Origin: an uncultured Methanosarcinales archaeon | GTDB lineage: Archaea; Nanobdellota; Nanobdellia; Woesearchaeales; CAZYIM01 | Assembly (NCBI GenBank): GCA_964647565.1 | Contig: CAZYIM010000008.1 | Location: forward strand, 12,045-76,044 | Direction of reading: 5' to 3' | DNA: 64,000 bases | Shown: one piece after another, positions 10,729-49,723 of the stretch | Layout: each line of letters opens with the position of its first letter | Position numbering within the stretch: position 1 is the stretch's first letter | Position numbers and translations under genes: made by a program | Notes under the pieces: model-generated | Databases searched by the model: none | What the model was told of the DNA's origin: nothing | Seen by the model: only the letters and a program-made list of their open reading frames with translations

Positions 10729-12171
10729 ATGGTGAAATTGATAACTAATTTGAATGTACTTTCTCAGAGATATGCAACAGATCAGATGAATGGCATATTC
10801 CAGGAATATGAGAAGAACCTCTTGGAACGAGAGCTATGGCTTACAGTGATGAAATCACAAAAAGAGCTTGGCGTTGATATTCCTTCAGAGGACATCGAGA
10901 AGTATGAGAGATCCTTTGGGAGCTTGGATCTGAATCGAATAGCAGAAATAGAAGCCAAAAGGCGGCATGATATCAAGGCCAAGATTGAGCACTATGTTGA
11001 GGTGTCTGGAGCAGGTGAGCACATCCACAAGGGCATGACCAGCAGGGACCTGACTGATAATATAGAGCTGATCCAGAACAGGCAGGCTGCCAGGATCATC
11101 TTTGGAAAATATGTAGCAATCCTTGACAAGTTCATCAGGCGTGCAGACGAATACAAGCCTATTATTCTTACAGCCAGGACTCATCACCAGCCAGCCCAGC
11201 CTACTCTTCTTGGAAGACGGTTTTCAATGTGGGCTGAGGAATTGCTGTTGCATCTTCCAGAGTTCGAGACCTTTATTGAGAATATGCCTTTTAGAGGCAT
11301 AAAAGGTGCTGTGGGAAGCCAGTTTGATCAGGTCACTCTTTTAGGCGGCTATGACAAGGCGGAAAAACTTGACAGGATGGTAGCAGATCACTTTGGCTTC
11401 AAACGTCTGCTTGACTCTCCTGGCCAGGTCTATCCAAGATCGCTCGACTATAGCCTTGCAAACAAGCTTGCACAATTGACTTCTTCATGCGAGAACTTTG
11501 CAAAGGGTATGAGATTGATGTCTGGCTATGAGCTTGTTACAGAAGGTTTTAAAGACGGACAAGTGGGCTCGACAGCTATGCCGCACAAGATGAACACAAG
11601 AAGCTCTGAAAGGATATGCGGTTCTTCAGAGTTAGTCAAGATGTATGCTGATGGTGCTTCAAGGATTTCAGGTGACCAATGGGAAGAGGGTGATGTTTCA
11701 TGTTCCATAGTTAGGAGGGTTATTGATCCTGACATCTTCTATGCCTCAGAGGCTGTATGCGAGACCACTCTTACTGTGCTGAGGGAGATGGGTGCTTATC
11801 CAGTTGTTATTGACAAGGAGCTTGACAGGTATCTTCCTTTCCTTGCTACAACTGAGATATTGATGACAGCTGTAAAAAAGGGTATGGGCAGAGAAGAGGC
11901 TCACAAGATTATCAAGAAGTATGCAGTTGAAGAAGCATTGAAGATGAGGGAAGAAGGTGAAGATCCCTGGCTTGTCCAGAAACTTGCACTAGATCCCCTT
12001 TTCATGGAGTATGATATTCAAAAAACAGATCTTGAGAAGATCCTTCAGGACAAGCAGCATTTCATCGGTAATACTTACAGGCAGATGGACCGAGTCAAGG
12101 CAAAGGCAGTATCATTGATGCTGGACAGGCATGGAGATGTGGCTGTATACCAGGGAAAAGACATACTCTGA
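10729..12171 (+). CDS. purB: adenylosuccinate lyase
   Basis: RHDIKA, HKGMTSRD, ARTHHQPAQPT, GSTAMPHKMN signature. Confidence 0.95.
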   Translation: MVKLITNLNVLSQRYATDQMNGIFQEYEKNLLERELWLTVMKSQKELGVDIPSEDIEKYERSFGSLDLNRIAEIEAKRRHDIKAKIEHYVEVSGAGEHIHKGMTSRDLTDNIELIQNRQAARIIFGKYVAILDKFIRRADEYKPIILTARTHHQPAQPTLLGRRFSMWAEELLLHLPEFETFIENMPFRGIKGAVGSQFDQVTLLGGYDKAEKLDRMVADHFGFKRLLDSPGQVYPRSLDYSLANKLAQLTSSCENFAKGMRLMSGYELVTEGFKDGQVGSTAMPHKMNTRSSERICGSSELVKMYADGASRISGDQWEEGDVSCSIVRRVIDPDIFYASEAVCETTLTVLREMGAYPVVIDKELDRYLPFLATTEILMTAVKKGMGREEAHKIIKKYAVEEALKMREEGEDPWLVQKLALDPLFMEYDIQKTDLEKILQDKQHFIGNTYRQMDRVKAKAVSLMLDRHGDVAVYQGKDIL

Positions 12172-18979: not shown

Positions 18980-19038
18980 TTATTCCCCTTCAAAATCTAT
19001 CATGTGGAAGACTTTGTGGCGTCCTGAATTTTTTTTCT
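18980..19038 (-). pseudogene. displaced relic of an apt 3' end
   Basis: Minus strand encodes ...HKVFHMIDFEGE*, matching the apt C-terminus KVHSMIQFEGD*. Confidence 0.75.
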
Positions 19039-19152
19039 CAATTTATTCATTTAATTGTCATAACTCTAAAATTTATTCGGTTTTTCCGAAACACTGGACA
19101 TGTACACGTAAGACTTTAATATTCTCTATTTTATTATTTTTATCAATTTTTC

Positions 19153-20127
19153 TTGCATTTGAAATCCAAGAAGTTAATTGATGATTTCAAAATGAAAAAA
19201 GATAAAAATCATATCAAAATGAGAAATAAAGTTGAACTTCTTTTAGATTTAGGTTTTTCAATTGAAGATATAGCTGCCAAACTTCATTTATTAATTGGAA
19301 CTCGCTTTATTAGAAAATCAGTAAAATGGTATAAATACTGCATCATGGCAAAGAAAAACCAAAAGATGGCTATTTCCAAACATCCTGGCCTTTACAGCAA
19401 GGCAGGTAAAATCGCACAACAAAAACATCCCTGGTTGGGGAGAGAATTGGGAAAGAAATATGGGCCGATCCAAGGAAAGAAAAATGCCGAAAGACTTCGA
19501 GGGAATTCTAAATATTTTTCAAAAATAGCCAGAAGATTACATGAAATTAATCCTGAACACTCTAGAAGAAATATGAAAAAAGCTCACAATACTATGAAAC
19601 GTGAAGGGACCTTCTACAAACATCAATTTAATGCATCCCTGAAATGCATGGAAAAACATCCTAATCAACTTAAAGAAATGTCAAGAAAAGCCCACGCTTT
19701 ATACCCTCTTGCCCAATTGGCAAGAGAAAGTAGAAGAAGGCATTACCCTTATAGATTTATGGATTGTTTTTTTGATTCATTCAATGAAATGAAATTATGT
19801 ATGTTGTTAGTTGAAAACGGATTGATGGAAAAACCGATAGAAGGGAAAAACGTGCATTTTCATTTATATAATCATCATATTGATTTCTTTGTTAAAAAAA
19901 CGGTCTTTATTGAATATCATCCTCCAATACAGTATGGTGGTAAAAACGAGACTCTAAAAAGTTATTATAAAGAACGCAGGAAACTTTTAGATAGTCGCGG
20001 ATATAAAGAATATCCCTTAATTGTATTTGACAGATTGAATCGTACCGAAAGTAAAATAAATAAAATAAAAAAACTAATCGCCCTCAAATTGAATCATAGA
20101 ATGAACTTTCAATCCTTGCTTTTCTAA
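19153..20127 (+). CDS. putative free-standing (homing-type) endonuclease, C-terminal PD-(D/E)xK/DUF559-like domain
   Basis: Basic repeated helices (KHP..., NUMOD-like); C-terminal FDSFNE...HIDFFV...FIEYH; AT-rich; overlaps apt 3' end convergently; start may be ATG at 19192. Confidence 0.7.
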   Translation: MHLKSKKLIDDFKMKKDKNHIKMRNKVELLLDLGFSIEDIAAKLHLLIGTRFIRKSVKWYKYCIMAKKNQKMAISKHPGLYSKAGKIAQQKHPWLGRELGKKYGPIQGKKNAERLRGNSKYFSKIARRLHEINPEHSRRNMKKAHNTMKREGTFYKHQFNASLKCMEKHPNQLKEMSRKAHALYPLAQLARESRRRHYPYRFMDCFFDSFNEMKLCMLLVENGLMEKPIEGKNVHFHLYNHHIDFFVKKTVFIEYHPPIQYGGKNETLKSYYKERRKLLDSRGYKEYPLIVFDRLNRTESKINKIKKLIALKLNHRMNFQSLLF

Positions 20128-20601
20128 TTTATTTCTACCTCCTAAATCTGGCAATTCGATTACAAAAGAACATTCGATAAGATCTCCTCCTATTTTTCTT
20201 ATTAACTTAGCTGAGGCCCCCGCGGTACCTGCGGTCGCAATCAGATCGTCTACAAGCAACACCTTGTCACCTTCCAGGATAGCATCTTTATGGACCTCGA
20301 CTGCATCCTTGCCGTACTCCAGCTCATACTCTTCCTTGACGGTTTCTGCAGGCAGTTTGCCTGGCTTTCTTATCAGCACAAAACCTAGTCCTAGTTTGTA
20401 GGCAAGCACAGAGCCAAAGATAAAACCCCTGCTCTCGATACCCGCAATCTTGTCTATCTTCATATCCTTGTATCTTTCGTAGAATTGATCGCAGGTCTGC
20501 TTGAAGGCCTCTGGATGCTTTAGAAGCGTTGTAATATCCCTAAACATAACACCCTTGATCGGAAAGTCGGGCACTGTTCTGATAGTTGATTTTAAATCCA
20601 T
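20074..20601 (-). CDS. apt: adenine phosphoribosyltransferase
   Basis: PDFP..GVMFRDITTLL, GIESRGF, RKPGKLP, YELEYG, LLVDDLIAT; GGGGTGA RBS. Confidence 0.96.
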   Translation of the reverse strand: MDLKSTIRTVPDFPIKGVMFRDITTLLKHPEAFKQTCDQFYERYKDMKIDKIAGIESRGFIFGSVLAYKLGLGFVLIRKPGKLPAETVKEEYELEYGKDAVEVHKDAILEGDKVLLVDDLIATAGTAGASAKLIRKIGGDLIECSFVIELPDLGGRNKLEKQGLKVHSMIQFEGD

Positions 20602-20691
20602 ATTGATCACCCCGATTGAAGTTTCTTGTACTGATTTATATATTTTACCAAAGGGAGATGAAGGGGGGATGTATTTTATTAAATGGTGATA

Positions 20692-20776
20692 GAAAAATCA
20701 CAACAACATTGGCACAGACGGATTCCTTTACGGAATCCTACTTGCCTTTGGCTCGCCTGGCCATGTTGTGATTTTC
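20692..20776 (-). ncRNA. structured element copy A: unknown three-way-junction motif
   Basis: Minus strand UGGC-CAGGC-GA-[GCC AAA GGC]-AAGUA-[GGAUUCC GUAAA GGAAUCC]-GUCUG-U-GCCA closed by a 12-bp outer stem. Confidence 0.55.
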
Positions 20777-20848
20777 CAGCGCTTTGGCTGCCCACGAATG
20801 TTTCTTCGATGAGTAAATATTATATATTAGCTTTACTTCCCCTCTTCC

Positions 20849-21322
20849 ATGGAGGGTTGTACTTTTTGTGAAATCTATGAGAAGAAGGTGAATATTATCA
20901 ACGAGAATGAACATTTCTATTCTAGGTTTGACCTCTTTCCAGTCTCTCCAGGTCATGTAGAAATAATCCCTAAGAAACATATTGTCTCGCTTTTGGATCT
21001 TACTAATGAAGAGTGGGCGAATCTGCAGCAAGCCATAGATCATACGTGGAAGATCGTTCAACTGGCTGACAAGGCCAAGGTCTATGAAAATCTGTTAGAG
21101 AGTCCGTATAACAAGAAATCAGAAGTGTATCTTCGATTGATGCTGGAACATCCTGCTATTGATTTAAAGCCAAGAGATTTCAACTCAGGCAATAATGATG
21201 GGCCTGCTGCTGGCAGGACAATTGACCATCTGCATTATCACATAATTCCTAGATACGCGGGTGATATGGAGAAACCTCTTGGCGGCATTAGGAATATCAT
21301 CCCTGGTATGGGTAGATATTGA
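20849..21322 (+). CDS. HIT-family hydrolase
   Basis: CTFC, PVSPGH..IIPKKH, AGRTIDHLHYHIIPR (histidine triad). Confidence 0.92.
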   Translation: MEGCTFCEIYEKKVNIINENEHFYSRFDLFPVSPGHVEIIPKKHIVSLLDLTNEEWANLQQAIDHTWKIVQLADKAKVYENLLESPYNKKSEVYLRLMLEHPAIDLKPRDFNSGNNDGPAAGRTIDHLHYHIIPRYAGDMEKPLGGIRNIIPGMGRY

Positions 21323-21399
21323 TTCTATTGGTGGTTATTTATCTACTTCTGAGTGGTAAAAACAAAACATTTATAAACTCATTCTATTGCTTTAACATC

Positions 21400-22227
21400 A
21401 TGGTTAAAATTGAAGCTCCTTTGTTGACAACGTATTTTGTCAGGCACCAGGAATCAGTCCAGAACAAACAAGGTTTTGGACCTTCTGATACTGATCTGAC
21501 TGAGGAAGGCAAGCAAAACGTCAGGGATATAGTCAAATTGTTCAACCATGTTGGTGTTGATAATATCGACTATATATTTTGTGGCGATCTGAAAAGACAT
21601 GATCAGACGTTAAATGCACTTCTTGATCAAATAGATTTCAAAGGACATATACGATTTGATGAAAAATTGAATGCATTCTTTAATCATCCTATGTTAGAAG
21701 GTGATCCTGAAAAGACTGAAAAAGAGTATGATCTTGCAAGATTCAAGAGAGGAGACAATGGCCTTTACGAAATCAGATTATCTGATAATAAAACTCTCGG
21801 CTTTGATCCCCAAGGAACAGGCGTTTATCCATTTGATCCTCTTTATTCCTGGGCGTATTTTGATAAGGATATAAGACAAGCAGTATTTCCTGATGTGCAG
21901 GATTTGGCTACGTTTGATGAAGTTGAGAGGAAGGTAAAAATGTTCCAGGCCTCATTGATTCACGAGATCAAACCTGCAAGACCGCAGAATGTGGTTGCAA
22001 TCTCTTCCTGTTCGCCAAGCGGTTATAATCTGGAATATTCTGCCTTTGAAACTATTGGTGAAAACTTGTTTGTATCTTTGGGCAGTGAGAATAATTCGAT
22101 TTTCTATCAAAAACATGATGAACTGATGATTCTTGGATATTCTCGAGAGGATTATCTTCAGAACAATGATAAACTTAGAGTAATAGAAGGAAATATAAAG
22201 ATCAAGAATTTTATTAATAGAACATGA
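21400..22227 (+). CDS. histidine phosphatase superfamily protein
   Basis: YFVRHQES...LTEEG...DLKR..QT (RHG-like motif). Confidence 0.75.
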   Translation: MVKIEAPLLTTYFVRHQESVQNKQGFGPSDTDLTEEGKQNVRDIVKLFNHVGVDNIDYIFCGDLKRHDQTLNALLDQIDFKGHIRFDEKLNAFFNHPMLEGDPEKTEKEYDLARFKRGDNGLYEIRLSDNKTLGFDPQGTGVYPFDPLYSWAYFDKDIRQAVFPDVQDLATFDEVERKVKMFQASLIHEIKPARPQNVVAISSCSPSGYNLEYSAFETIGENLFVSLGSENNSIFYQKHDELMILGYSREDYLQNNDKLRVIEGNIKIKNFINRT

Positions 22228-23684
22228 AGCCTTTCATCAATCTGGGTACTAGAAACAAAGGCACTTTCTGGGAATATTTGAGCGCTTATTCTTTTCGGCA
22301 TACCAAACTTCCTATAACTAAATATGAAATTTCCTCGTTTCTTGGTTATGGGGCTGGCGAGCCAAACATGCATTGCCATAATAAAGATGTGATTGAGCAA
22401 ACCATTAAATTGATGATGGCTGAATTCAACCAAGGCAAATACAATCAGAAATTCTTTAATATTCTGGATGCAGTCTATCGTTTGCCATATGATGATATTA
22501 AAATAAAACTGAAAACATCTCTACCTAAGAATCTGCTTGATATAATAAATCTCTTTGAGACTGTTTTCAAAGCAATGGCAGAAACTCATAAGCCCATGTT
22601 GTTGGCATTGAAATCACAATACCTGAACAATTTTTTCCGTGAAGAACTAAAAAAGGTTTTGAGTAAGAGTGAAAAAAACAGGCTTGTTGAATATACAACA
22701 CTGCTTCTTACACCAACCAAGCTAACATTTGTTCAAATGGAAGAAACCAAATTGTTCGAGCTTCATAAAGAATTTGAAACCTTATATGAAACAAAAAGCA
22801 AATCTTTGTTTAAGGAATTTTGTCGATTACCAAATATTCAGAAAAAATTAAAGACATTGGCTCGAAGTTATGGTTGGTTTCATATGGAATACTCTCAGTT
22901 GCCCTGGGATGTTAAAGAGCATGAAGCACACTTATGGAACCGGATTGAAAAAAGTTCTGAAATTAAGGCGCCAGCAATTAAGATAACAGAAGCAAAACTT
23001 GCACAAAAAGAATTCTTTAAGCGACATCCGGATTCAGAAAGATTGAAAAAATTGACTTTCGCTCTACAGGAATTCTCGATGATTCTAGACTTTTCAAAAG
23101 CAATTGTGATCCATGAGTCTTACCTTGCAAGGCCATTGTTTAATGAGATAGCAAGAAGATTAGATATTAGCTGGAATGAGCTGCTCTATTTGACCATGCC
23201 AGAGATAGTGGATCTTCTGAAGAAAGATTGCAAGGCCGACAAGACACTAATCGCTCTGAGGAAGAAACACAGATTAGTCTTGCAGCGGGATGGCAAGATT
23301 CGTGTCTATCAGGGGCCAGAAGCATTGAAGCTTGCAGAACAGCTGATTGATGACCAATCAGATCAAGAAGAGATCCGTGGCGTTATTGGTTGCCAGGGAA
23401 AATATAAGGGTGAGGTAATAATCATTCGCTCGATAAAGGATAAAGCTAAGTTTCGCAAAGGCGCTGTCTTAGTGACACATGATGGATCTGCAGAGATGAC
23501 CATGTTCCTTAAGCAGGCAGGTGCAATTGTTACAGAACAGGGAGGTATGATCTGTCATGCTGCGATTGTTGCCAGGGAGATGAAGATTCCGTGTATTGTG
23601 GGCACTAAGAATGCAACAAAACTTCTGAAAGACGGTGACCTGGTCGAAATCGATGCGTTTAGGGGAACAGTGAAAAAGATCTGA
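22224..23684 (+). CDS. PEP-utilising enzyme mobile (phospho-His) domain protein
   Basis: AIVTEQGGMICHAAIVAREMKIPCIVGT..AT..LKDGDLVEIDA..G. Confidence 0.88.
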   Translation: MKPFINLGTRNKGTFWEYLSAYSFRHTKLPITKYEISSFLGYGAGEPNMHCHNKDVIEQTIKLMMAEFNQGKYNQKFFNILDAVYRLPYDDIKIKLKTSLPKNLLDIINLFETVFKAMAETHKPMLLALKSQYLNNFFREELKKVLSKSEKNRLVEYTTLLLTPTKLTFVQMEETKLFELHKEFETLYETKSKSLFKEFCRLPNIQKKLKTLARSYGWFHMEYSQLPWDVKEHEAHLWNRIEKSSEIKAPAIKITEAKLAQKEFFKRHPDSERLKKLTFALQEFSMILDFSKAIVIHESYLARPLFNEIARRLDISWNELLYLTMPEIVDLLKKDCKADKTLIALRKKHRLVLQRDGKIRVYQGPEALKLAEQLIDDQSDQEEIRGVIGCQGKYKGEVIIIRSIKDKAKFRKGAVLVTHDGSAEMTMFLKQAGAIVTEQGGMICHAAIVAREMKIPCIVGTKNATKLLKDGDLVEIDAFRGTVKKI

Positions 23685-23689
23685 TCACT

Positions 23690-23968
23690 TTACTTTTGCC
23701 CGCAACAGTTCTTGTTTAATGGCTTGTATAACAATTCCCCTTTGTCGTCGACTGCTCCACATCTGGTGATCATCATGGCCATGTTTTCTTCGACAGCAAC
23801 TTTAAAGAGTTTACTAGATGTTGGACATGAACTATAAGGTGGATTATCTTTTTTCCTGTCGCAATTGTAACAGAGGCATTCTTCTCGCCTGGCCTCATCC
23901 ATTTCTTTATTTGCCCAGATCTTAGGAGGAATCTCCTTTTTTGGGTTTGCAATTAATTCTATTCCCAT
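23690..23968 (-). CDS. small Cys-rich hypothetical protein
   Basis: GGGAG RBS; ECLCYNC...SCP...RC. Confidence 0.6.
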   Translation of the reverse strand: MGIELIANPKKEIPPKIWANKEMDEARREECLCYNCDRKKDNPPYSSCPTSSKLFKVAVEENMAMMITRCGAVDDKGELLYKPLNKNCCGQK

Positions 23969-23986
23969 TTTTTAACTCCCCCACCT

Positions 23987-24721
23987 CTATTTTTTCTTAA
24001 CAACCTCTCCGAAAGCATCTCCATAAAGAGTGTAACTAGTGATGCCCATAAAACCCGAGTAGATGATTGATAGTATGAAGTAGATTAAGAAAGCAAATCC
24101 AGTCCATATTAGCGGTATAGTGCCGCTGCCCATCACTATTGAGGGTAATGAGATCAGCCTATAGATTATCTGCAGTACGGTGGATCCTACAATGGAATAC
24201 GCAAGGATTATCAGCCAGGCAATAAGATATGATTGGGTGAATGCACGTTTGAAGATCAACTTAAAGTTAAATGCATCTCCAAATTTATTCTTATTGATAA
24301 AATGCATGATCGCCATTGGTGATATATAGCCATAAAAGACAGCAAAGATCACGAAAAACAGTAACAATACAAGGAAGATCAGTATTGCAACAACTATCGT
24401 TCCAGTACCAGTTAATGTTGATGCGCCTGTGCTGAACAATTTTAGTGAGAGTACAATCACAATAGCAATTGCTATTACAATTAGTATGGGTATACAATAG
24501 ATGATAAGTATTATAGAGCCTAAAAGTCCGTTTACCCAGAGCTGGCTCCAGTTTTTCCATTCTGGCAGCTCAAACTTTTTTTTCATAGCAGACTTTGCAC
24601 ATTCAAAAAAATATCCTATTGTCCAGAAATTAATAATTGGTAGCCAACAAAGAAGAATCGCGATCAGGAGTTTCTTGAAATCTTTTAGAGGCCTTTTTAG
24701 TGCCAGAACAATTTCAACCAT
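23987..24721 (-). CDS. DUF4013-like membrane protein
   Basis: PIINF..IGY...LPEW.NW..L...G pattern and multiple TM helices. Confidence 0.75.
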   Translation of the reverse strand: MVEIVLALKRPLKDFKKLLIAILLCWLPIINFWTIGYFFECAKSAMKKKFELPEWKNWSQLWVNGLLGSIILIIYCIPILIVIAIAIVIVLSLKLFSTGASTLTGTGTIVVAILIFLVLLLFFVIFAVFYGYISPMAIMHFINKNKFGDAFNFKLIFKRAFTQSYLIAWLIILAYSIVGSTVLQIIYRLISLPSIVMGSGTIPLIWTGFAFLIYFILSIIYSGFMGITSYTLYGDAFGEVVKKK

Positions 24722-24784
24722 TTTGTTATTCTTTTCCTTTGATTAATACTTTATAAAATTATCGAAACACATTCTATCAGAAAC

Positions 24785-24927
24785 GACTCTATCCAGAAAG
24801 GAGGATTTATCCCGCCTAGCGTAGCCGAGTGTTTAGGATCTGATTAAAATAGGATCGGTTTACAGTCGATAACATAATGGGTGCGAAGCGCGGGAAAATT
24901 CTCTGCGTGAGCATTCTGGACAGAGCA
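24785..24927. mobile_element. 143-bp MITE, copy 1
   Basis: Imperfect TIR gactctatccaga/tctggacagagca; perfect 8-bp target duplication TCAGAAAC (24777-24784, 24928-24935); highly similar to 27358..27500. Confidence 0.85.
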
Positions 24928-25032
24928 TCAGAAACGAAAAATTTATATATATTATTTGTTAGAATCTTAGTATTGTAATGAACACGCAAAACAATTTCTG
25001 TAATTTTTATAAACAAGAAACATGTCTATAAA

Positions 25033-25137
25033 ATGAGTCCGCTGGATGAATCCCAACCATTAGATCGATGTAAGCATTGTGGAGCAAAGATTTCTCCTGA
25101 TGATGTAATCTGTCCCAAGTGTGGTGCAGATATATAG
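25033..25137 (+). CDS. 34-aa zinc-ribbon microprotein
   Basis: MSPLDESQPLDRCKHCGAKISPDDVICPKCGADI*, with CxxC...CPxCG; TATA (tttataaa) about 25 nt upstream. Confidence 0.7.
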   Translation: MSPLDESQPLDRCKHCGAKISPDDVICPKCGADI

Positions 25138-25149
25138 AATTTGTTTTTT

Positions 25150-25926
25150 TTATTCTTTCTTGTCTGCTTCAGGCTTTGCATCAGCTGGTTTTCCTTCTTC
25201 AGCTTTACCTTCACCAGGAGCAGCCGCAGCTTCTTCAGCAGGCACGACCTTGTTGATGACAACCTCTGAGATTTCAGCTTCTCGCATCTTATCAACAATG
25301 GAAGACCTTGTCTTACCGGTCATAGATGCTAGTATCTCTTTGGCTTTCTTTTCTTCTTCTTCATGTTTCTTGACAAGCTCTTCTTGGAGTTTCTTTTTCT
25401 CTTCTTCCAAAGCAGCTCTCTCTTCATCAGACAACTCTGTCTTTTCCTCTTTGATTTCCTTGTCAAACTTACCTTCATCAATCAGCTTAAAGGCTTCAGA
25501 TGCCTTGACACCTTCAACCATGATGCCCATAGAATTACAGGTTCCGACTATTTCCTTGATTTTCTCTTTCATGGTTTTTCCTAAAAGAGCGTCTTCCTTC
25601 ATCTTAGCGATCTTGATAACTTGAACAATGGCCAGGTCTGCAATAAGCTCTGATTGAGGTACTCCTGATCCTTTTTCAACGCCTGCTTCTTTCTTGATTA
25701 GTGAAGCTGCGGGTGGAGTTCCTATAGAAATCTCGAAAGCCTTGGTGTCAGAGTCTATGATGACTTTGACTGGTACCTGCATTCCCTTAAAGGCCTCGGT
25801 CTTTTTGTTTATCTCTGCAACTACTTCGCCGATATTTACGCCTTTAGGTCCTAGAGCAGGTCCTAGTGGAGGTGCAGCTGTTGCCTTTCCTCCTTCTACC
25901 AATGCTTCTACAGTTTCCTTTGCCAT
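25150..25926 (-). CDS. rpl11: 50S ribosomal protein L11 with about 100-aa C-terminal extension
   Basis: GGKATAAPPLGPALGP, GMQVPV, PPAASLIKK, EIVGTCNSMGI. Confidence 0.95.
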   Translation of the reverse strand: MAKETVEALVEGGKATAAPPLGPALGPKGVNIGEVVAEINKKTEAFKGMQVPVKVIIDSDTKAFEISIGTPPAASLIKKEAGVEKGSGVPQSELIADLAIVQVIKIAKMKEDALLGKTMKEKIKEIVGTCNSMGIMVEGVKASEAFKLIDEGKFDKEIKEEKTELSDEERAALEEEKKKLQEELVKKHEEEEKKAKEILASMTGKTRSSIVDKMREAEISEVVINKVVPAEEAAAAPGEGKAEEGKPADAKPEADKKE

Positions 25927-25974
25927 AATAGTTCTCAGGAAAAACAGGGCATTTATAAAGGTTATGAAAACCTG

Positions 25975-26163
25975 GGCTATTATGAAAACCTCTGGATTTT
26001 TATGTTCGTCTGTGCCATTGTTGTCATTGTTTTCGACTGAAAAGGAGAACAACAATGGAAAGGCCAGACGTAATCGACGAGGTTAAGCTATAAAATAGCT
26101 TTGTTCTCGTCGATGTAGTAGGACATGAAAATCCTAAAAGAAGTAAAGGGTTTCATAATAGCC
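25975..26163 (+). mobile_element. 189-bp MITE carrying a permuted copy (C) of the three-way-junction motif
   Basis: TIR ggctattatgaaaacct/agggtttcataatagcc (1 mismatch); 9-bp direct repeat GAAAACCTG at 25966-25974 and 26164-26172. Confidence 0.8.
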
Positions 26164-26179
26164 GAAAACCTGTAACTAA

Positions 26180-27313
26180 TCATCCAAGCTTTTCTGTGAT
26201 CAGACACTTGGGTTTATCAATAAAAATGTGTGCGCATTTGTCTCCTTTTAGTTCTGATTCCAGATTGTTTCTGATTTTCCAGTATTCATCTGGAGGAAAA
26301 CTTGCGTGTAGTACTGCTTTACCGTAATTCATCTTTTCCAATTCTTCTTTTAAGTCTGTAAATATACATGATTTGATCAGTTTAAACCCTGTCAAGAAAG
26401 TATTATTTATTTGCGCATCACAGGTTATCAAGACCTTGCCGAAGTCGAGTTTTTTTGCATTTGGAGTATTCTCTAAGGATCTTAAAAGGATGTCAAGCAT
26501 ATTTGCTTTAAGTATGGCTTTGTCCGGATCATATATGAATTTCCTTGGTGTTTTTGAAAAACCTGAGCATTCTATAATTTTGCCGTCCCAGTTAAGCATT
26601 GCTTCTTCTGGTAGGGCTACTACTGAGGTCCTACACTTAGCTAGCTTACCGAAATAAGTGGTAAGTCTATTTAGAGAGTTATTAATAGATATATATTCAA
26701 GTTCACAATCTTCTGGAGGCTCTTTGAGCTGGGGTGGAAGCTCAAGTGAAAGATTGGCCTTGATTTTTTGGCTTGTGCTTAAGAGAAATCCGAGCTTGGG
26801 TGAAATGTTCTCGATATTCCTCGATTTTTCACTTGGTGCTCTTTCTGGATCACAGAATACAATATTAGCATCTTTTATCTTGCTTAGTTCTTCTTCTGCC
26901 AGCCCATGGATAAAAATAACATTATGTGATCCTGCTTGTTTGATATTAAATTTAGCATACTCTATTTTTCTTTTATCCTTCTCAATAGCATATACCTTGT
27001 CACATTTTTTTGCAAATGCAAGAGTTTGGATGCCAATTCCACATCCAACATCCACAAGGGTTTTGCACTTTAACCGTCTTGCTCTGTATTCTGCTACCAG
27101 AGGATTGGTTGCAAATCTTAGGTCATTTTTTTGATAGATAAAATTATCAGGTAGGTGTTTGGTCTTTTTTCCAATTATCCTGGCTTTGGCTATCTCATAG
27201 GCTTCTGAATCATACTCTTTTCCCAGATTGTCAACTATCTGTTCTTGAGAATATCCTGCCCTAAGCCAATCCTCTATTCTTCTGGCTGTTTTAAGAAGAG
27301 ACTTAAATCCCAT
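26180..27313 (-). CDS. class I SAM-dependent methyltransferase (RNA methyltransferase-like, C-terminal THUMP-like region)
   Basis: VDVGCGIGIQ, AIE.D, FCDPER. Confidence 0.8.
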   Translation of the reverse strand: MGFKSLLKTARRIEDWLRAGYSQEQIVDNLGKEYDSEAYEIAKARIIGKKTKHLPDNFIYQKNDLRFATNPLVAEYRARRLKCKTLVDVGCGIGIQTLAFAKKCDKVYAIEKDKRKIEYAKFNIKQAGSHNVIFIHGLAEEELSKIKDANIVFCDPERAPSEKSRNIENISPKLGFLLSTSQKIKANLSLELPPQLKEPPEDCELEYISINNSLNRLTTYFGKLAKCRTSVVALPEEAMLNWDGKIIECSGFSKTPRKFIYDPDKAILKANMLDILLRSLENTPNAKKLDFGKVLITCDAQINNTFLTGFKLIKSCIFTDLKEELEKMNYGKAVLHASFPPDEYWKIRNNLESELKGDKCAHIFIDKPKCLITEKLG

Positions 27314-27357
27314 AAGGTATGGTCAAGATATTTGGATTAAAAAAGTTATTGATTATG

Positions 27358-27500
27358 GGCTCTGTTCAGCAAGGAGGATTTATCCTGCCTAGCGTAGCCA
27401 AGTGTTTAGGATCTGATTAAAATAGAATCGGTTTACAGCAGATAACATAATGGGTGCGAAGCGCGGGAAAATTCTCTGCAAAATCATTCTGGACCGAGTC
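27358..27500. mobile_element. 143-bp MITE, copy 2
   Basis: TIR ggctctgttcag/ctggaccgagtc; flanks TGATTATG / TGATTATC (7 of 8 match). Confidence 0.85.
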
Positions 27501-27544
27501 TGATTATCGATACATTTTTATTATCTTATTTAATTCTCAGATTC

Positions 27545-27733
27545 ATGGTTGTGCTTGAGGATAACGGCCGATGTGTGATTCGCTATGAACAGGGTTGGAT
27601 GAAAGCCAGCTACCATACTATCGGTAAAGAGACTATTGATGATAACACCAGACTCCAAGCAGCTAAAATGATGATTTATTCTTCAATCAAGCTATTGTTG
27701 GGTGCTTATACTGATCGCATCAACCATGATTAA
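27545..27733 (+). CDS. small hypothetical protein
   Basis: 62-aa ORF after an AT-rich promoter-like stretch. Confidence 0.4.
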   Translation: MVVLEDNGRCVIRYEQGWMKASYHTIGKETIDDNTRLQAAKMMIYSSIKLLLGAYTDRINHD

Positions 27734-27775
27734 AGATTGACAAACTTTAAAAGATAATTAATCTTTCTTAGGTGC

Positions 27776-28642
27776 ATGAAAGTTCTTATCCTTGGAGGTA
27801 GCGGATATCTGGGTTCTAAGCTTATGGAAAAATGGAAGAATAGGCATGATGTATTGGGTACCTATTTTAACAATGAACATGAGGGCTTGGTGGAATTAGA
27901 TATTCGAGATAAAGACCGGTTGGTCAGGACAACAGTCGGTTTTAAGCCAGACATCATTGTGAACACCTCTGCTTTTTCAAGTGTTGATTTCTGTGAAGAT
28001 CATCCTAAAAAAGCATTAGATCTCAACACAAAAGCTGTAAGGACATTGTCAGATCTTTGTGAGTATGATGGTATTAAATTGATCCACATCTCGTCAGGTT
28101 CTATTTTTAAGGGTGATGTTGGCAACTATTCTGAGAATGACCTTCCTGATCCTATAAATACGTATGGATTAACAAAGGGTCTTGCTGACAGGCATCTGAT
28201 AGAAAAAAATGATAACTATATCATTGCCAGAGTCAGTCTGTTATATGGTCATAAGGATCCTGAAGGTAAGAAATTTGCAGATTGGATATTGAATAATTTA
28301 CGCAATGGAACTGAACTTGACCTCGCTGTCGATACTTTTTGCAGTCCAGGTGTTACAGAAGATGTTGCGAGTGCTCTTGAAACCCTTATAGACAAGGGAA
28401 GAACAGGGATATACAATATTGCTGGCCCTGAAATAATAAGCAAGTATGATTTTGCCATTAAGATTGCACAAATATATGGTCTGAATGAGAATCTGATAAA
28501 ACCCATTAAACAAGCAGACTTAAGGGGATTAGCTCCCAGGGCTGCAGATGTTTCATTAAACATCAATAAATTGACTTTAGAAGGGATCAAGATGCGAAAT
28601 ATTTATGAAGGTATTAATTTTATGAAAGATTGTGGGGTGTGA
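27776..28642 (+). CDS. rfbD: dTDP-4-dehydrorhamnose reductase-like SDR
   Basis: GGSGYLG, VDFCE, PINTYGLTK (YxxxK), GIYNIAG..ISKYDFA. Confidence 0.85.
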   Translation: MKVLILGGSGYLGSKLMEKWKNRHDVLGTYFNNEHEGLVELDIRDKDRLVRTTVGFKPDIIVNTSAFSSVDFCEDHPKKALDLNTKAVRTLSDLCEYDGIKLIHISSGSIFKGDVGNYSENDLPDPINTYGLTKGLADRHLIEKNDNYIIARVSLLYGHKDPEGKKFADWILNNLRNGTELDLAVDTFCSPGVTEDVASALETLIDKGRTGIYNIAGPEIISKYDFAIKIAQIYGLNENLIKPIKQADLRGLAPRAADVSLNINKLTLEGIKMRNIYEGINFMKDCGV

Positions 28643-49585: not shown

Positions 49586-49723
49586 AAATAATAAGCATTC
49601 ATACATGGCACAGACGGCCAAATAAAGATTTGTCCTACTCGGCTAAAGCCTCGCCTGGCCATGGTTCGCAAGCTTCTTTGCGAACCCGAGAACAAACGAA
49701 GTGACCATGAATGCTTATTATTT
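49586..49723 (-). ncRNA. structured element copy B: unknown three-way-junction motif inside a 17-bp perfect inverted repeat
   Basis: aaataataagcattcat/atgaatgcttattattt; minus-strand core UGGC-CAGGC-GA-[GGC UUUA GCC]-GAGUA-[GG...CC]-GUCUG-U-GCCA. Confidence 0.6.

Follow-up and report, generated by a model that had tools for sequence, protein, structure and literature searches.

We analysed a window of 64,000 nucleotides (positions 12,045 to 76,044 of contig CAZYIM010000008.1, GenBank assembly GCA_964647565.1) from an uncultured archaeon that GTDB places in the order Woesearchaeales, and in it a repeated, RNA-like element built around a three-way junction. The window's own genome, here called G000, is a 2.68-Mb assembly in 86 contigs, 38% G+C and 87% complete; the other archaeal genomes compared carry other G numbers, C denotes a contig and L an extracted locus. 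A first-pass annotation had grouped three places in the window as one unrecognised motif. When the sequences were re-read, the cores of the first two, copies A and B (Table 1), were found to be as it described: on the minus strand both run UGGCCAGGC-GA, a hairpin, RAGUA, a second hairpin and GUCUG-U-GCCA. Three occurrences of the 11-mer CGTCTGTGCCA were counted in the window (20710-20720 on the minus strand, 26007-26017 on the plus strand and 49606-49616 on the minus strand) where 0.34 are expected, and none of 100 shuffles reached three. Within the window, TGGCCAGGCGAG is present exactly only at copies A and B. The minus strand of both copies folds better than the plus strand, with -41.6 against -34.4 kcal/mol for copy A (minus-strand z -7.0) and -56.9 against -47.5 kcal/mol for copy B (z -6.3).

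All three places hold real copies, but three was an undercount. An exact pattern found seven copies in the window's genome, and a covariance model built from 16 short copies of that genome (R1), the kind of search that the first-pass annotation had proposed, gave 33 matches there, corresponding to 29 elements, one weak match and three extra rows of split elements. In total the genome holds about 32 copies: 17 short (52-56 nt), 8 long (86-90 nt, with a long P2 stem), 1 medium, 3 extra-long (137-197 nt, each matched as two halves) and 3 circularly permuted, these last coming from a DNA search and one of them being truncated at a contig end. They form a dispersed family of hairpin-shaped, non-coding, intergenic repeats of about 85-230 bp, in which a long A/U-rich outer stem is capped by the three-way junction.

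The stems had been said to change in sequence while keeping their pairing, and this held in the further copies. Among the 16 short copies of the own genome 93.1% of cells were paired, compared with 78.3% after shuffling, a value reached by none of 500 shuffles, and both sides had changed in 11 of 19 pairs; a control in which partners were slid by 1-3 columns left pairing at 34-45%. For 44 distinct sequences from other genomes, whose alignment was fitted to the R1 model and is thus biased towards structure, the figures were 95.0% against 74.2%, with both sides changed in 14 of 19 pairs and a covariation score of 0.501 against 0.171 (0/500 shuffles reached it). RNAalifold, supplied with 10 whole elements of the own genome and no structure, recovered the junction independently. 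Beyond the junction, this consensus contains P0, an outer stem of 14 bp rich in A/U, and an internal loop that is asymmetric, with 1-2 bases facing 5; both sides had changed in 19 of its 32 pairs. G.U cells outnumbered A.C cells by 49 to 3 in the other genomes and by 23 to 7 in the own copies, so that the fold belongs to one strand, as the first-pass annotation had argued from a single G.U pair. As only one strand keeps the pairing, the working form of the junction is a folded single strand, most likely a transcript. A look for RNA data sets covering window positions 19000-28000 gave none, and four sequencing runs of the same studies yielded no contig over 20300-21100.

The core consists of P1 ending in G-R-Y, P2 closed by tandem G.A pairs, an R-U-A linker, P3 starting with G-G and ending with C-C, and G-U-C leading back into P1. 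Here the earlier description needs correcting, as it placed both the junction GA and RAGUA outside its stems. In an alignment of 46 rows the GA pairs with the first two bases of GAGUA, making a tandem G.A that extends P2, and only R-U-A is left unpaired (U in 42 rows, A in all 46), giving junction strands of 0, 3 and 0 bases. In five of the 46 rows, and also in the C27 copy of the own genome, Watson-Crick pairs (G-C/C-G, G-C/U-A, U-A/C-G or G-C/A-U) take the place of the tandem G.A. The continuous strand C-C-G-U-C is nearly invariant; its G is partnered by C or U and its U by G or A, a variation that always keeps pairing. At the third pair of P3 a purine-purine mismatch is frequent (7/16 own rows, 16/44 from other genomes). 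Only this core is conserved between genomes, and the outer stems vary. The medium copies (L038, L039, L040, L041, L044, L084, L099, L101, L144 and G000:C27:9623-9690) carry in P2 a common insert with the pattern GGGGG-NNN-CCCC(C)-UNC-GGGG, whose CCCC/GGGG hairpin is backed by covariation; as its free G-run could pair alternatively, a switch is possible.

The third copy named in the first-pass annotation sits on the plus strand in circularly permuted form, with P1 closed by a hairpin and P3 open, inside a transposable element of the miniature inverted-repeat kind (MITE). The window copy (fold -80.6 kcal/mol, z -12.8) is 96% identical to G000:C40:2679-2867 over exactly 189 bp, with unrelated flanks on either side. 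The ends of this 189-bp unit are the inverted repeats GGCTATTATGAAAMCC and GGGTTTCATAATAGCC, and the C40 copy is bounded by a 9-bp direct repeat of its own, GTAGAATGA. Permuted units measure 186-237 bp, have terminal inverted repeats (TIRs) of 16-17 bp and were found in five of 150 other genomes of the order, at 68-76% identity. Carriers include G098 and G138, in which an autonomous element would be bounded by GGCTATTATGAAACCC, and the terminal repeat has 26 matches in G098. A 9-bp duplication, perfect or 8/9, bounds 8 of the 10 permuted copies that have both flanks (four genomes), whereas mismatched flank pairs gave any match in only 12 of 756 cases. The permuted type is a classical non-autonomous DNA transposon, with TIRs and target-site duplications.

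A consensus fold of 10 permuted copies from four genomes (both sides changed in 24 of 65 pairs) begins with a terminal-repeat stem, followed by an open P3, P1 with a hairpin closing it, P2 lengthened by purine-purine pairs and a G-U-A linker. The hairpin AUUGUUGU/ACAACAAU of the window copy is the counterpart of the outer stem of ordinary copies. Both wirings have in common the core GGCCAGAC-GUA-P2-GGA-GUA-GG...CC-GUCUGUGCC, and the conserved strings of the permuted copies, GGCCAGAC, GGAGUAGG and CCGUCUGUGCC, are those of the long ordinary copies. G102 holds further permuted copies with other outer parts. That the junction is kept in two wirings indicates that the junction itself matters, and not the ends of the molecule.

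Table 1. Positions of the junction elements and their parts in the window, followed by closely spaced copies in other places (TIR, terminal inverted repeat; MFE, minimum free energy)
Feature	Position	Strand	Description
Copy A, whole element	20692..20777	-	14-bp A/U-rich outer stem P0, asymmetric internal loop, P1 with bulged U, three-way junction; MFE fold
Copy A, junction core	20710..20763	-	P1 UGGCCAGGC/GUCUG-U-GCCA; P2 GCC-AAA-GGC closed by G.A/A.A; linker GUA; P3 GGAUUCC/GGAAUCC; R1 73.9 bits
Copy B, whole element	49586..49723	-	Outer stem AAAUAAUAAGCAUUCAUGG / CCAUGUAUGAAUGCUUAUUAUUU; extra 5' hairpin module; fold
Copy B, junction core	49606..49661	-	R1 68.9 bits
Copy B, extra hairpin GGUUCGCAAAGAAGCUUGCGAACC	49663..49686	-	Within inserted stretch between P0 and P1 bounded by CAUGG direct repeat
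Permuted copy, one complete 189-bp MITE	25975..26163	+	Order: TIR, P3 3' strand, P1 closed by hairpin, P2, P3 5' strand, TIR
Left TIR GGCTATTATGAAAACC	25975..25990	+	Kept in G055, G098, G138
Right TIR GGGTTTCATAATAGCC	26148..26163	+	
Target-site duplication GAAAACCTG, left	25966..25974		
Target-site duplication GAAAACCTG, right	26164..26172		
Permuted P3, partner strand	25994-26007	+	
Permuted P1	26007..26070	+	CGUCUG-U-GCC ... GGCCAGACG, closed by hairpin AUUGUUGU...ACAACAAU
Permuted P2, junction and P3 5' strand	26074..26134	+	P2 UCGACGAG...CUCGUCGA; junction UGUAGUA ending in GUA linker; P3 5' strand GGACAUGAAAAUCC
Head-to-head pair	G000:C19:8319-8403/8447-8499	-/+	
Head-to-head pair	G020:C59:7760-7818/7844-7912	-/+	
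Head-to-head pair	L204:1501-1583/1624-1709	-/+	
Head-to-head pair	L211:1386-1466/1501-1585	-/+	

The unit of copy B that runs from AAATAAGCATTCAT to ATGAATGCTTATT is common to four other copies of the own genome, and the GGUUCGCAAAGAAGCUUGCGAACC module is found in own copies S1, X1, X2 and X3 (L008, L031-L033). The stretch inserted in copy B (49663-49706, minus strand) is flanked by CAUGG direct repeats, as if it were a nested insertion; judged by eye in the window copies, the AUG of CAUGG opens no conserved frame for a small protein. Mechanically called open reading frames (ORFs) of 51-107 aa cross copy A at 20683-20871 (+), 20738-21061 (-) and 20616-20771 (+), and are most likely artefacts of the repeat.

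R1 matched 8 of 40 and 20 of 150 other genomes of the same order. In samples larger than 40 genomes stricter filters were used and 36 candidates were scored per genome, making the counts lower bounds; the 20 include the unpublished G131, which is left out of everything else. Carriers, whose record titles are mostly Candidatus Woesearchaeota, mostly hold one or two copies, with more in G020 (11-12) and G080 (9). A phylum-wide sample of 150 genomes, for which the share outside the order is not stated, gave matches in eight, all listed as the same order. A pattern scan over one genome per species returned at least 121 stretches. Among the 80 listed, those rescored at 55 bits or more were 10 titled Candidatus Woesearchaeota and one titled Methanosarcinales, while weaker, well-folded matches carried further Woesearchaeota, Methanosarcinales and Omnitrophota titles. 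The five genomes behind the Methanosarcinales and Omnitrophota titles (L093, L084, L099, L142, L101) measure 1.1-1.5 Mb, and in two of them the match places are identical to those of genomes listed as the same order; given these small genomes and shared match places, we do not read the titles as a wider range. As far as searched, the family is confined to one small-genome archaeal order.

GC-rich bacterial stretches among those listed scored 26 bits or less, and the ones inspected do not fold as the motif. Three Clostridia-titled stretches (L085:16-59, L148:1-40, L077:201-239) belong to a different repeat with another fold, in which CGGCGAGCCGUAGGCGAGUAGGC is a hairpin loop; they score 22-26 bits with R1, and one of the metagenome-assembled genomes has this repeat at two contig ends. 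A 22-base pattern run against viral contigs gave two stretches, neither with the stems of the motif. With its 2.68 Mb, G000 exceeds the listed genomes of the same order (0.6-2.1 Mb), and its small contigs C58, C65, C76, C77, C81 and C84, with more than 45% G+C against a median of 38.7%, may be foreign.

All 28 own copies examined are intergenic. The 56 ORFs flanking them are housekeeping genes from unrelated families and include genes for S6e, S7, eIF2-gamma, eIF1A, GINS, Hsp70, a topoisomerase, thioredoxin, an ELP3-like protein and a HIT protein; 16 loci of relatives are likewise intergenic beside unrelated genes. For these 44 copies, 15 have the orientation of both neighbours, 13 are opposite to both, 15 lie between divergent genes and one between convergent genes. 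Of 26 own copies placed by crude gene calls, 18 fell in tandem, 7 in divergent and 1 in convergent intergenic regions; the 2370 regions of the genome divide into 1579, 389 and 402. Some copies begin 1-30 nt beyond the stop codon of a gene, the Hsp70 gene being one example. A stem of about 22 bp has an A-run on one side and a U-run on the other, the U-run being 3' of the outer stem. No conserved copy position between genomes was found among the flanking ORFs, which gave six weak cross-genome pairs; at the only close one, an eIF2-gamma gene (63% identity), the copies sit at different positions.

The four pairs of copies that are no more than about 45 nt apart are all arranged head to head, minus then plus, and none is tail to tail or tandem (Table 1). 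Copies also sit at contig ends in G000:C20 and in G015. In the latter genome (G015:C25:11363-14955), L040 and L049 hold two copies about 2 kb apart, whose downstream flanks are near-identical over some 45 nt. Between the two copies is an Mrr-type endonuclease gene, a XerC/D-like tyrosine recombinase gene lies just beyond, and the contig ends in the second copy. Adjoining copy S4, an ORF of 685 aa (L011:3130-5184, on G000:C6) combines an AAA/Mg-chelatase-like N-terminus with an intein splicing domain.

The first-pass annotation could not match the core to hammerhead, HDV, twister, pistol, hatchet or any riboswitch it knew, and a search of Rfam 15 agreed with it. At the gathering score nothing was found in the whole window, and in E-value mode nothing overlapped the motif at window positions 20500-21000, at 11 loci of relatives or at six own loci (long, extra-long and permuted). 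The genome's 5S rRNA (C16:2897-3012) is not the motif, and derivation from 5S was rejected. Its signal recognition particle (SRP) RNA (C4:72228-72550; 94.4 bits, just under the cut-off) has a 5' domain without sequence likeness to the motif, and we rejected derivation from the SRP Alu domain as well. RNase P RNA (C4:43480-43776) is encoded elsewhere, and ARAGORN found no tRNA in the window. As far as titles, abstract openings and one preprint passage show, the motif has not been described in the literature. The junction is unlikely to be a riboswitch, a gene-specific regulator or a housekeeping RNA.

The observations to be accounted for are a strand-specific, covarying three-way junction, a dispersed and patchy family, circular permutation and the MITE hallmarks of the permuted type. 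We favour a composite explanation, to which we give an even chance: mobile repeats that carry an RNA junction serving the element. The elements would multiply and move as small mobile DNA, as the permuted type does and as the ordinary copies may do. The junction would act in a transcript as a compact RNA fold, and would be a module carried for the element's own benefit, which may bind a conserved partner or process or end read-through transcripts. The first-pass annotation had allowed that the conserved bases might simply be DNA sites bound by a transposase; since they are central, not terminal, and the pairing is strand-specific, they are not simply such sites.

Several results weigh against this explanation. 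Its role for the junction in a transcript is one that we infer, and the benefit to the element is conjecture. The own copies are old, with wholly different outer stems and yet 93% of cells paired, which suggests selection on each copy, perhaps for a host function. Among 26 ordinary copies no target duplication of 6 bp or more was seen, apart from one 6-bp candidate and one likely chance match. The ends of ordinary copies vary while the centre is constant, the reverse of a TIR-dependent transposon; their outer stems do serve as inverted repeats, but not with the same sequence from copy to copy. The searches for a mover point the same way. No TIR pair at a spacing like that of insertion sequences (IS) occurred in the incomplete assemblies of G000, G098, G138 and G055, and no DDE_Tnp_1 (PF01609, IS4/5-type) transposase in those of the permuted-form carriers G098, G138, G055 and G102. 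G000 has one IS4/5-type transposase ORF of 318 aa (L231:1131-2121; G000:C3:36514-37504), with inverted repeats that differ from the permuted TIRs. No Y1 (HUH) transposase (PF01797) was found in G000, G020, G016 or G021, and there was one match in G080. Reverse transcriptase (PF00078) gave no match in five genomes. An autonomous element with TIRs matching those of the MITE was not found in the assemblies searched, which are 59-93% complete.

Two known classes of repeat were set aside on these searches: a retroelement like a short interspersed nuclear element (SINE), for want of a reverse transcriptase in the five genomes, and a repetitive extragenic palindromic (REP) element with its REP-associated tyrosine transposase (RAYT), for want of a Y1 transposase in G000, G020, G016 and G021. 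At the IS4/5-type ORF of G000 there is a 17-bp inverted repeat, GGTTGTGTAGAAAAAGT, of which one arm lies immediately upstream of the reading frame and the other falls within it.

Alternatively, the ordinary copies may be independent genes for hairpin small RNAs (sRNAs) of about 100 nt that end in the U-run, with a junction that binds a host protein in a ribonucleoprotein (RNP) and with mobility limited to the permuted subfamily. Each old copy keeps its pairing through compensatory changes and the core is kept across many families of the order, as would be expected of such genes; the 3' U-run would fit, and the 13 of 44 copies that are antisense to both neighbours would need transcription of their own. 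Archaeal C/D box sRNA genes are scattered in the same way and often lack a promoter of their own. We nevertheless consider such genes unlikely. No TATA-like box was found at a fixed distance upstream of the copies, and no protein gene recurs beside them. The variable parts are double-stranded, so that some 30 variants bring no guide diversity. The motif is present in only 20 of 150 genomes, which argues against a core RNP. In addition, the tandem G.A is dispensable, and the loop is on the wrong strand for an L7Ae-type k-turn.

It has also been considered whether the junction might belong to a not yet described class of small self-cleaving ribozymes and form its core. It would then cut RNAs transcribed through the element, much like the hammerhead, twister and hepatitis delta virus-like ribozymes of other repeats and mobile elements. 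A small junction, some 50 nt in size, in which invariant bases surround variable stems would suit such a ribozyme, as would the multi-copy, patchy, repeat-associated occurrence and the natural circular permutation, a hallmark of hammerhead and twister. The tandem G.A that closes a hairpin and the GUC at the P3/P1 boundary echo domain 2 and the cleavage triplet of the hammerhead. Against this, only three bases are unpaired, and the GUC is base-paired with partner changes that keep pairing (G.U/A-U and C-G/U.G). The motif lacks the CUGANGA and GAAA boxes, and none of the ribozyme models of Rfam matched at E up to 10. The tandem G.A can be replaced by Watson-Crick pairs and so does not consist of catalytic residues. 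A ribozyme is rather improbable in our view, and slightly more improbable still is the fuller proposal of a new ribozyme class, naturally permuted like hammerhead and twister and carried by MITEs and related repeats of DPANN archaea, for which the junction would supply the catalytic core.

We rate as no better than the ribozyme the idea that the folded strand is DNA, that is, a single-stranded recombination or transposition site of which one strand is read by a recombinase, as with integron attC sites, the ends of IS200/IS605 or REP and RAYT. Strand-specific pairing that is independent of neighbouring transcription is what such a site predicts. GTAG stands directly before the P3 hairpin, and REP sequences have a conserved GTAG beside their stem; the four head-to-head pairs resemble inverted REP doublets; and the G015 copies bracket an Mrr gene that adjoins a tyrosine recombinase gene. 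However, the Y1/HUH transposase is missing from both G000 (87% complete) and G020 (99% complete), tyrosine recombinase genes do not lie near the copies in G000, and the copies form no cassette arrays. Furthermore, the permuted type has 9-bp duplications, which point to a DDE transposase acting on double-stranded DNA.

The elements could instead be mere transcript-end hairpins, either bidirectional terminators or 3'-end stabilisers like bacterial REP and ERIC (enterobacterial repetitive intergenic consensus) repeats, with a junction that has no role of its own. The A- and U-runs around the stem and the copies just past stop codons are consistent with this. The scarcity of copies between convergent genes (1/44 by flank calls, 1/26 of those placed against 402/2370 in the background) argues against a plain terminator, although the own genome taken alone gives a weak signal. 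Fifteen of the 44 copies lie between divergent genes, where there is nothing to end, and an invariant junction preserved throughout an order is not what a plain hairpin would show. We therefore find this very unlikely. The riboswitch core that the first-pass annotation had listed as an option, or any other gene-specific cis-regulator, would explain conserved junction bases with variable stems, but is hardly credible in view of 44 copies beside unrelated genes in either orientation, seven metagenome loci in which relatives of the ELP3-like gene (34-55% identity) have no motif downstream even with filters off, and a copy of the motif inside a MITE.

To our knowledge few non-coding RNAs are known from DPANN archaea, whose genomes are very compact. 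A strand-specific fold is here kept across many families of one order, in two wirings and on demonstrably mobile DNA. At 52-90 nt, this candidate new ribozyme or protein-binding RNA is small enough for direct assay, and a MITE family with clear target duplications gives a handle on the transposase in these archaea. For annotation the elements are of practical concern, as they create spurious ORFs and break assemblies.

Among known systems, the hammerhead ribozyme is likewise a three-way junction of some 50 nt that exists in natural circular permutations and occurs in repeats; in both, tandem G.A pairs close one hairpin and GUC is found where the third helix meets the first. In the hammerhead consensus, CUGANGA separates stems I and II, GAAA separates stems II and III, and U16.1 is followed by an unpaired H17. 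The motif has neither box, its GUC is paired with G-R-Y, only three bases are unpaired and no Rfam hammerhead model matched, and the first-pass annotation was right to see no hammerhead in it. Archaeal C/D box sRNA families likewise occupy tens of scattered intergenic loci in any orientation and combine a protein-binding core with a variable remainder. Unlike them, the motif has no C/D boxes or single-stranded guide, its variable parts are helices, and its distribution is patchy and not universal. For the k-turn and k-junction the comparison draws on passages of PMC4005666 and PMC10573300 and otherwise on general background; like the motif, these have tandem G.A pairs beside three unpaired bases at a three-way junction. 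In a k-turn the three bases lie 5' of the G.A pairs on the bulged strand, and in the motif they lie 3' on what would be the non-bulged strand; the Watson-Crick pairs in five of 46 rows also differ from a k-turn.

The closest likeness is to prokaryotic MITEs and to the REP/BIME/REPIN, ERIC and Correia elements, which are also short, non-coding, multi-copy, intergenic and hairpin-forming, with uneven copy number. Prokaryotic MITEs share TIRs and target-site duplications with the permuted subfamily, and ERIC, like this family, is reported to keep RNA-level pairing in its old copies. In contrast to such repeats, the ordinary copies are without target duplication, a cognate transposase was not found in the genomes searched, and the host is a DPANN-type archaeon; here the conserved part is not the termini but a central three-way junction, which exists in two permuted wirings.

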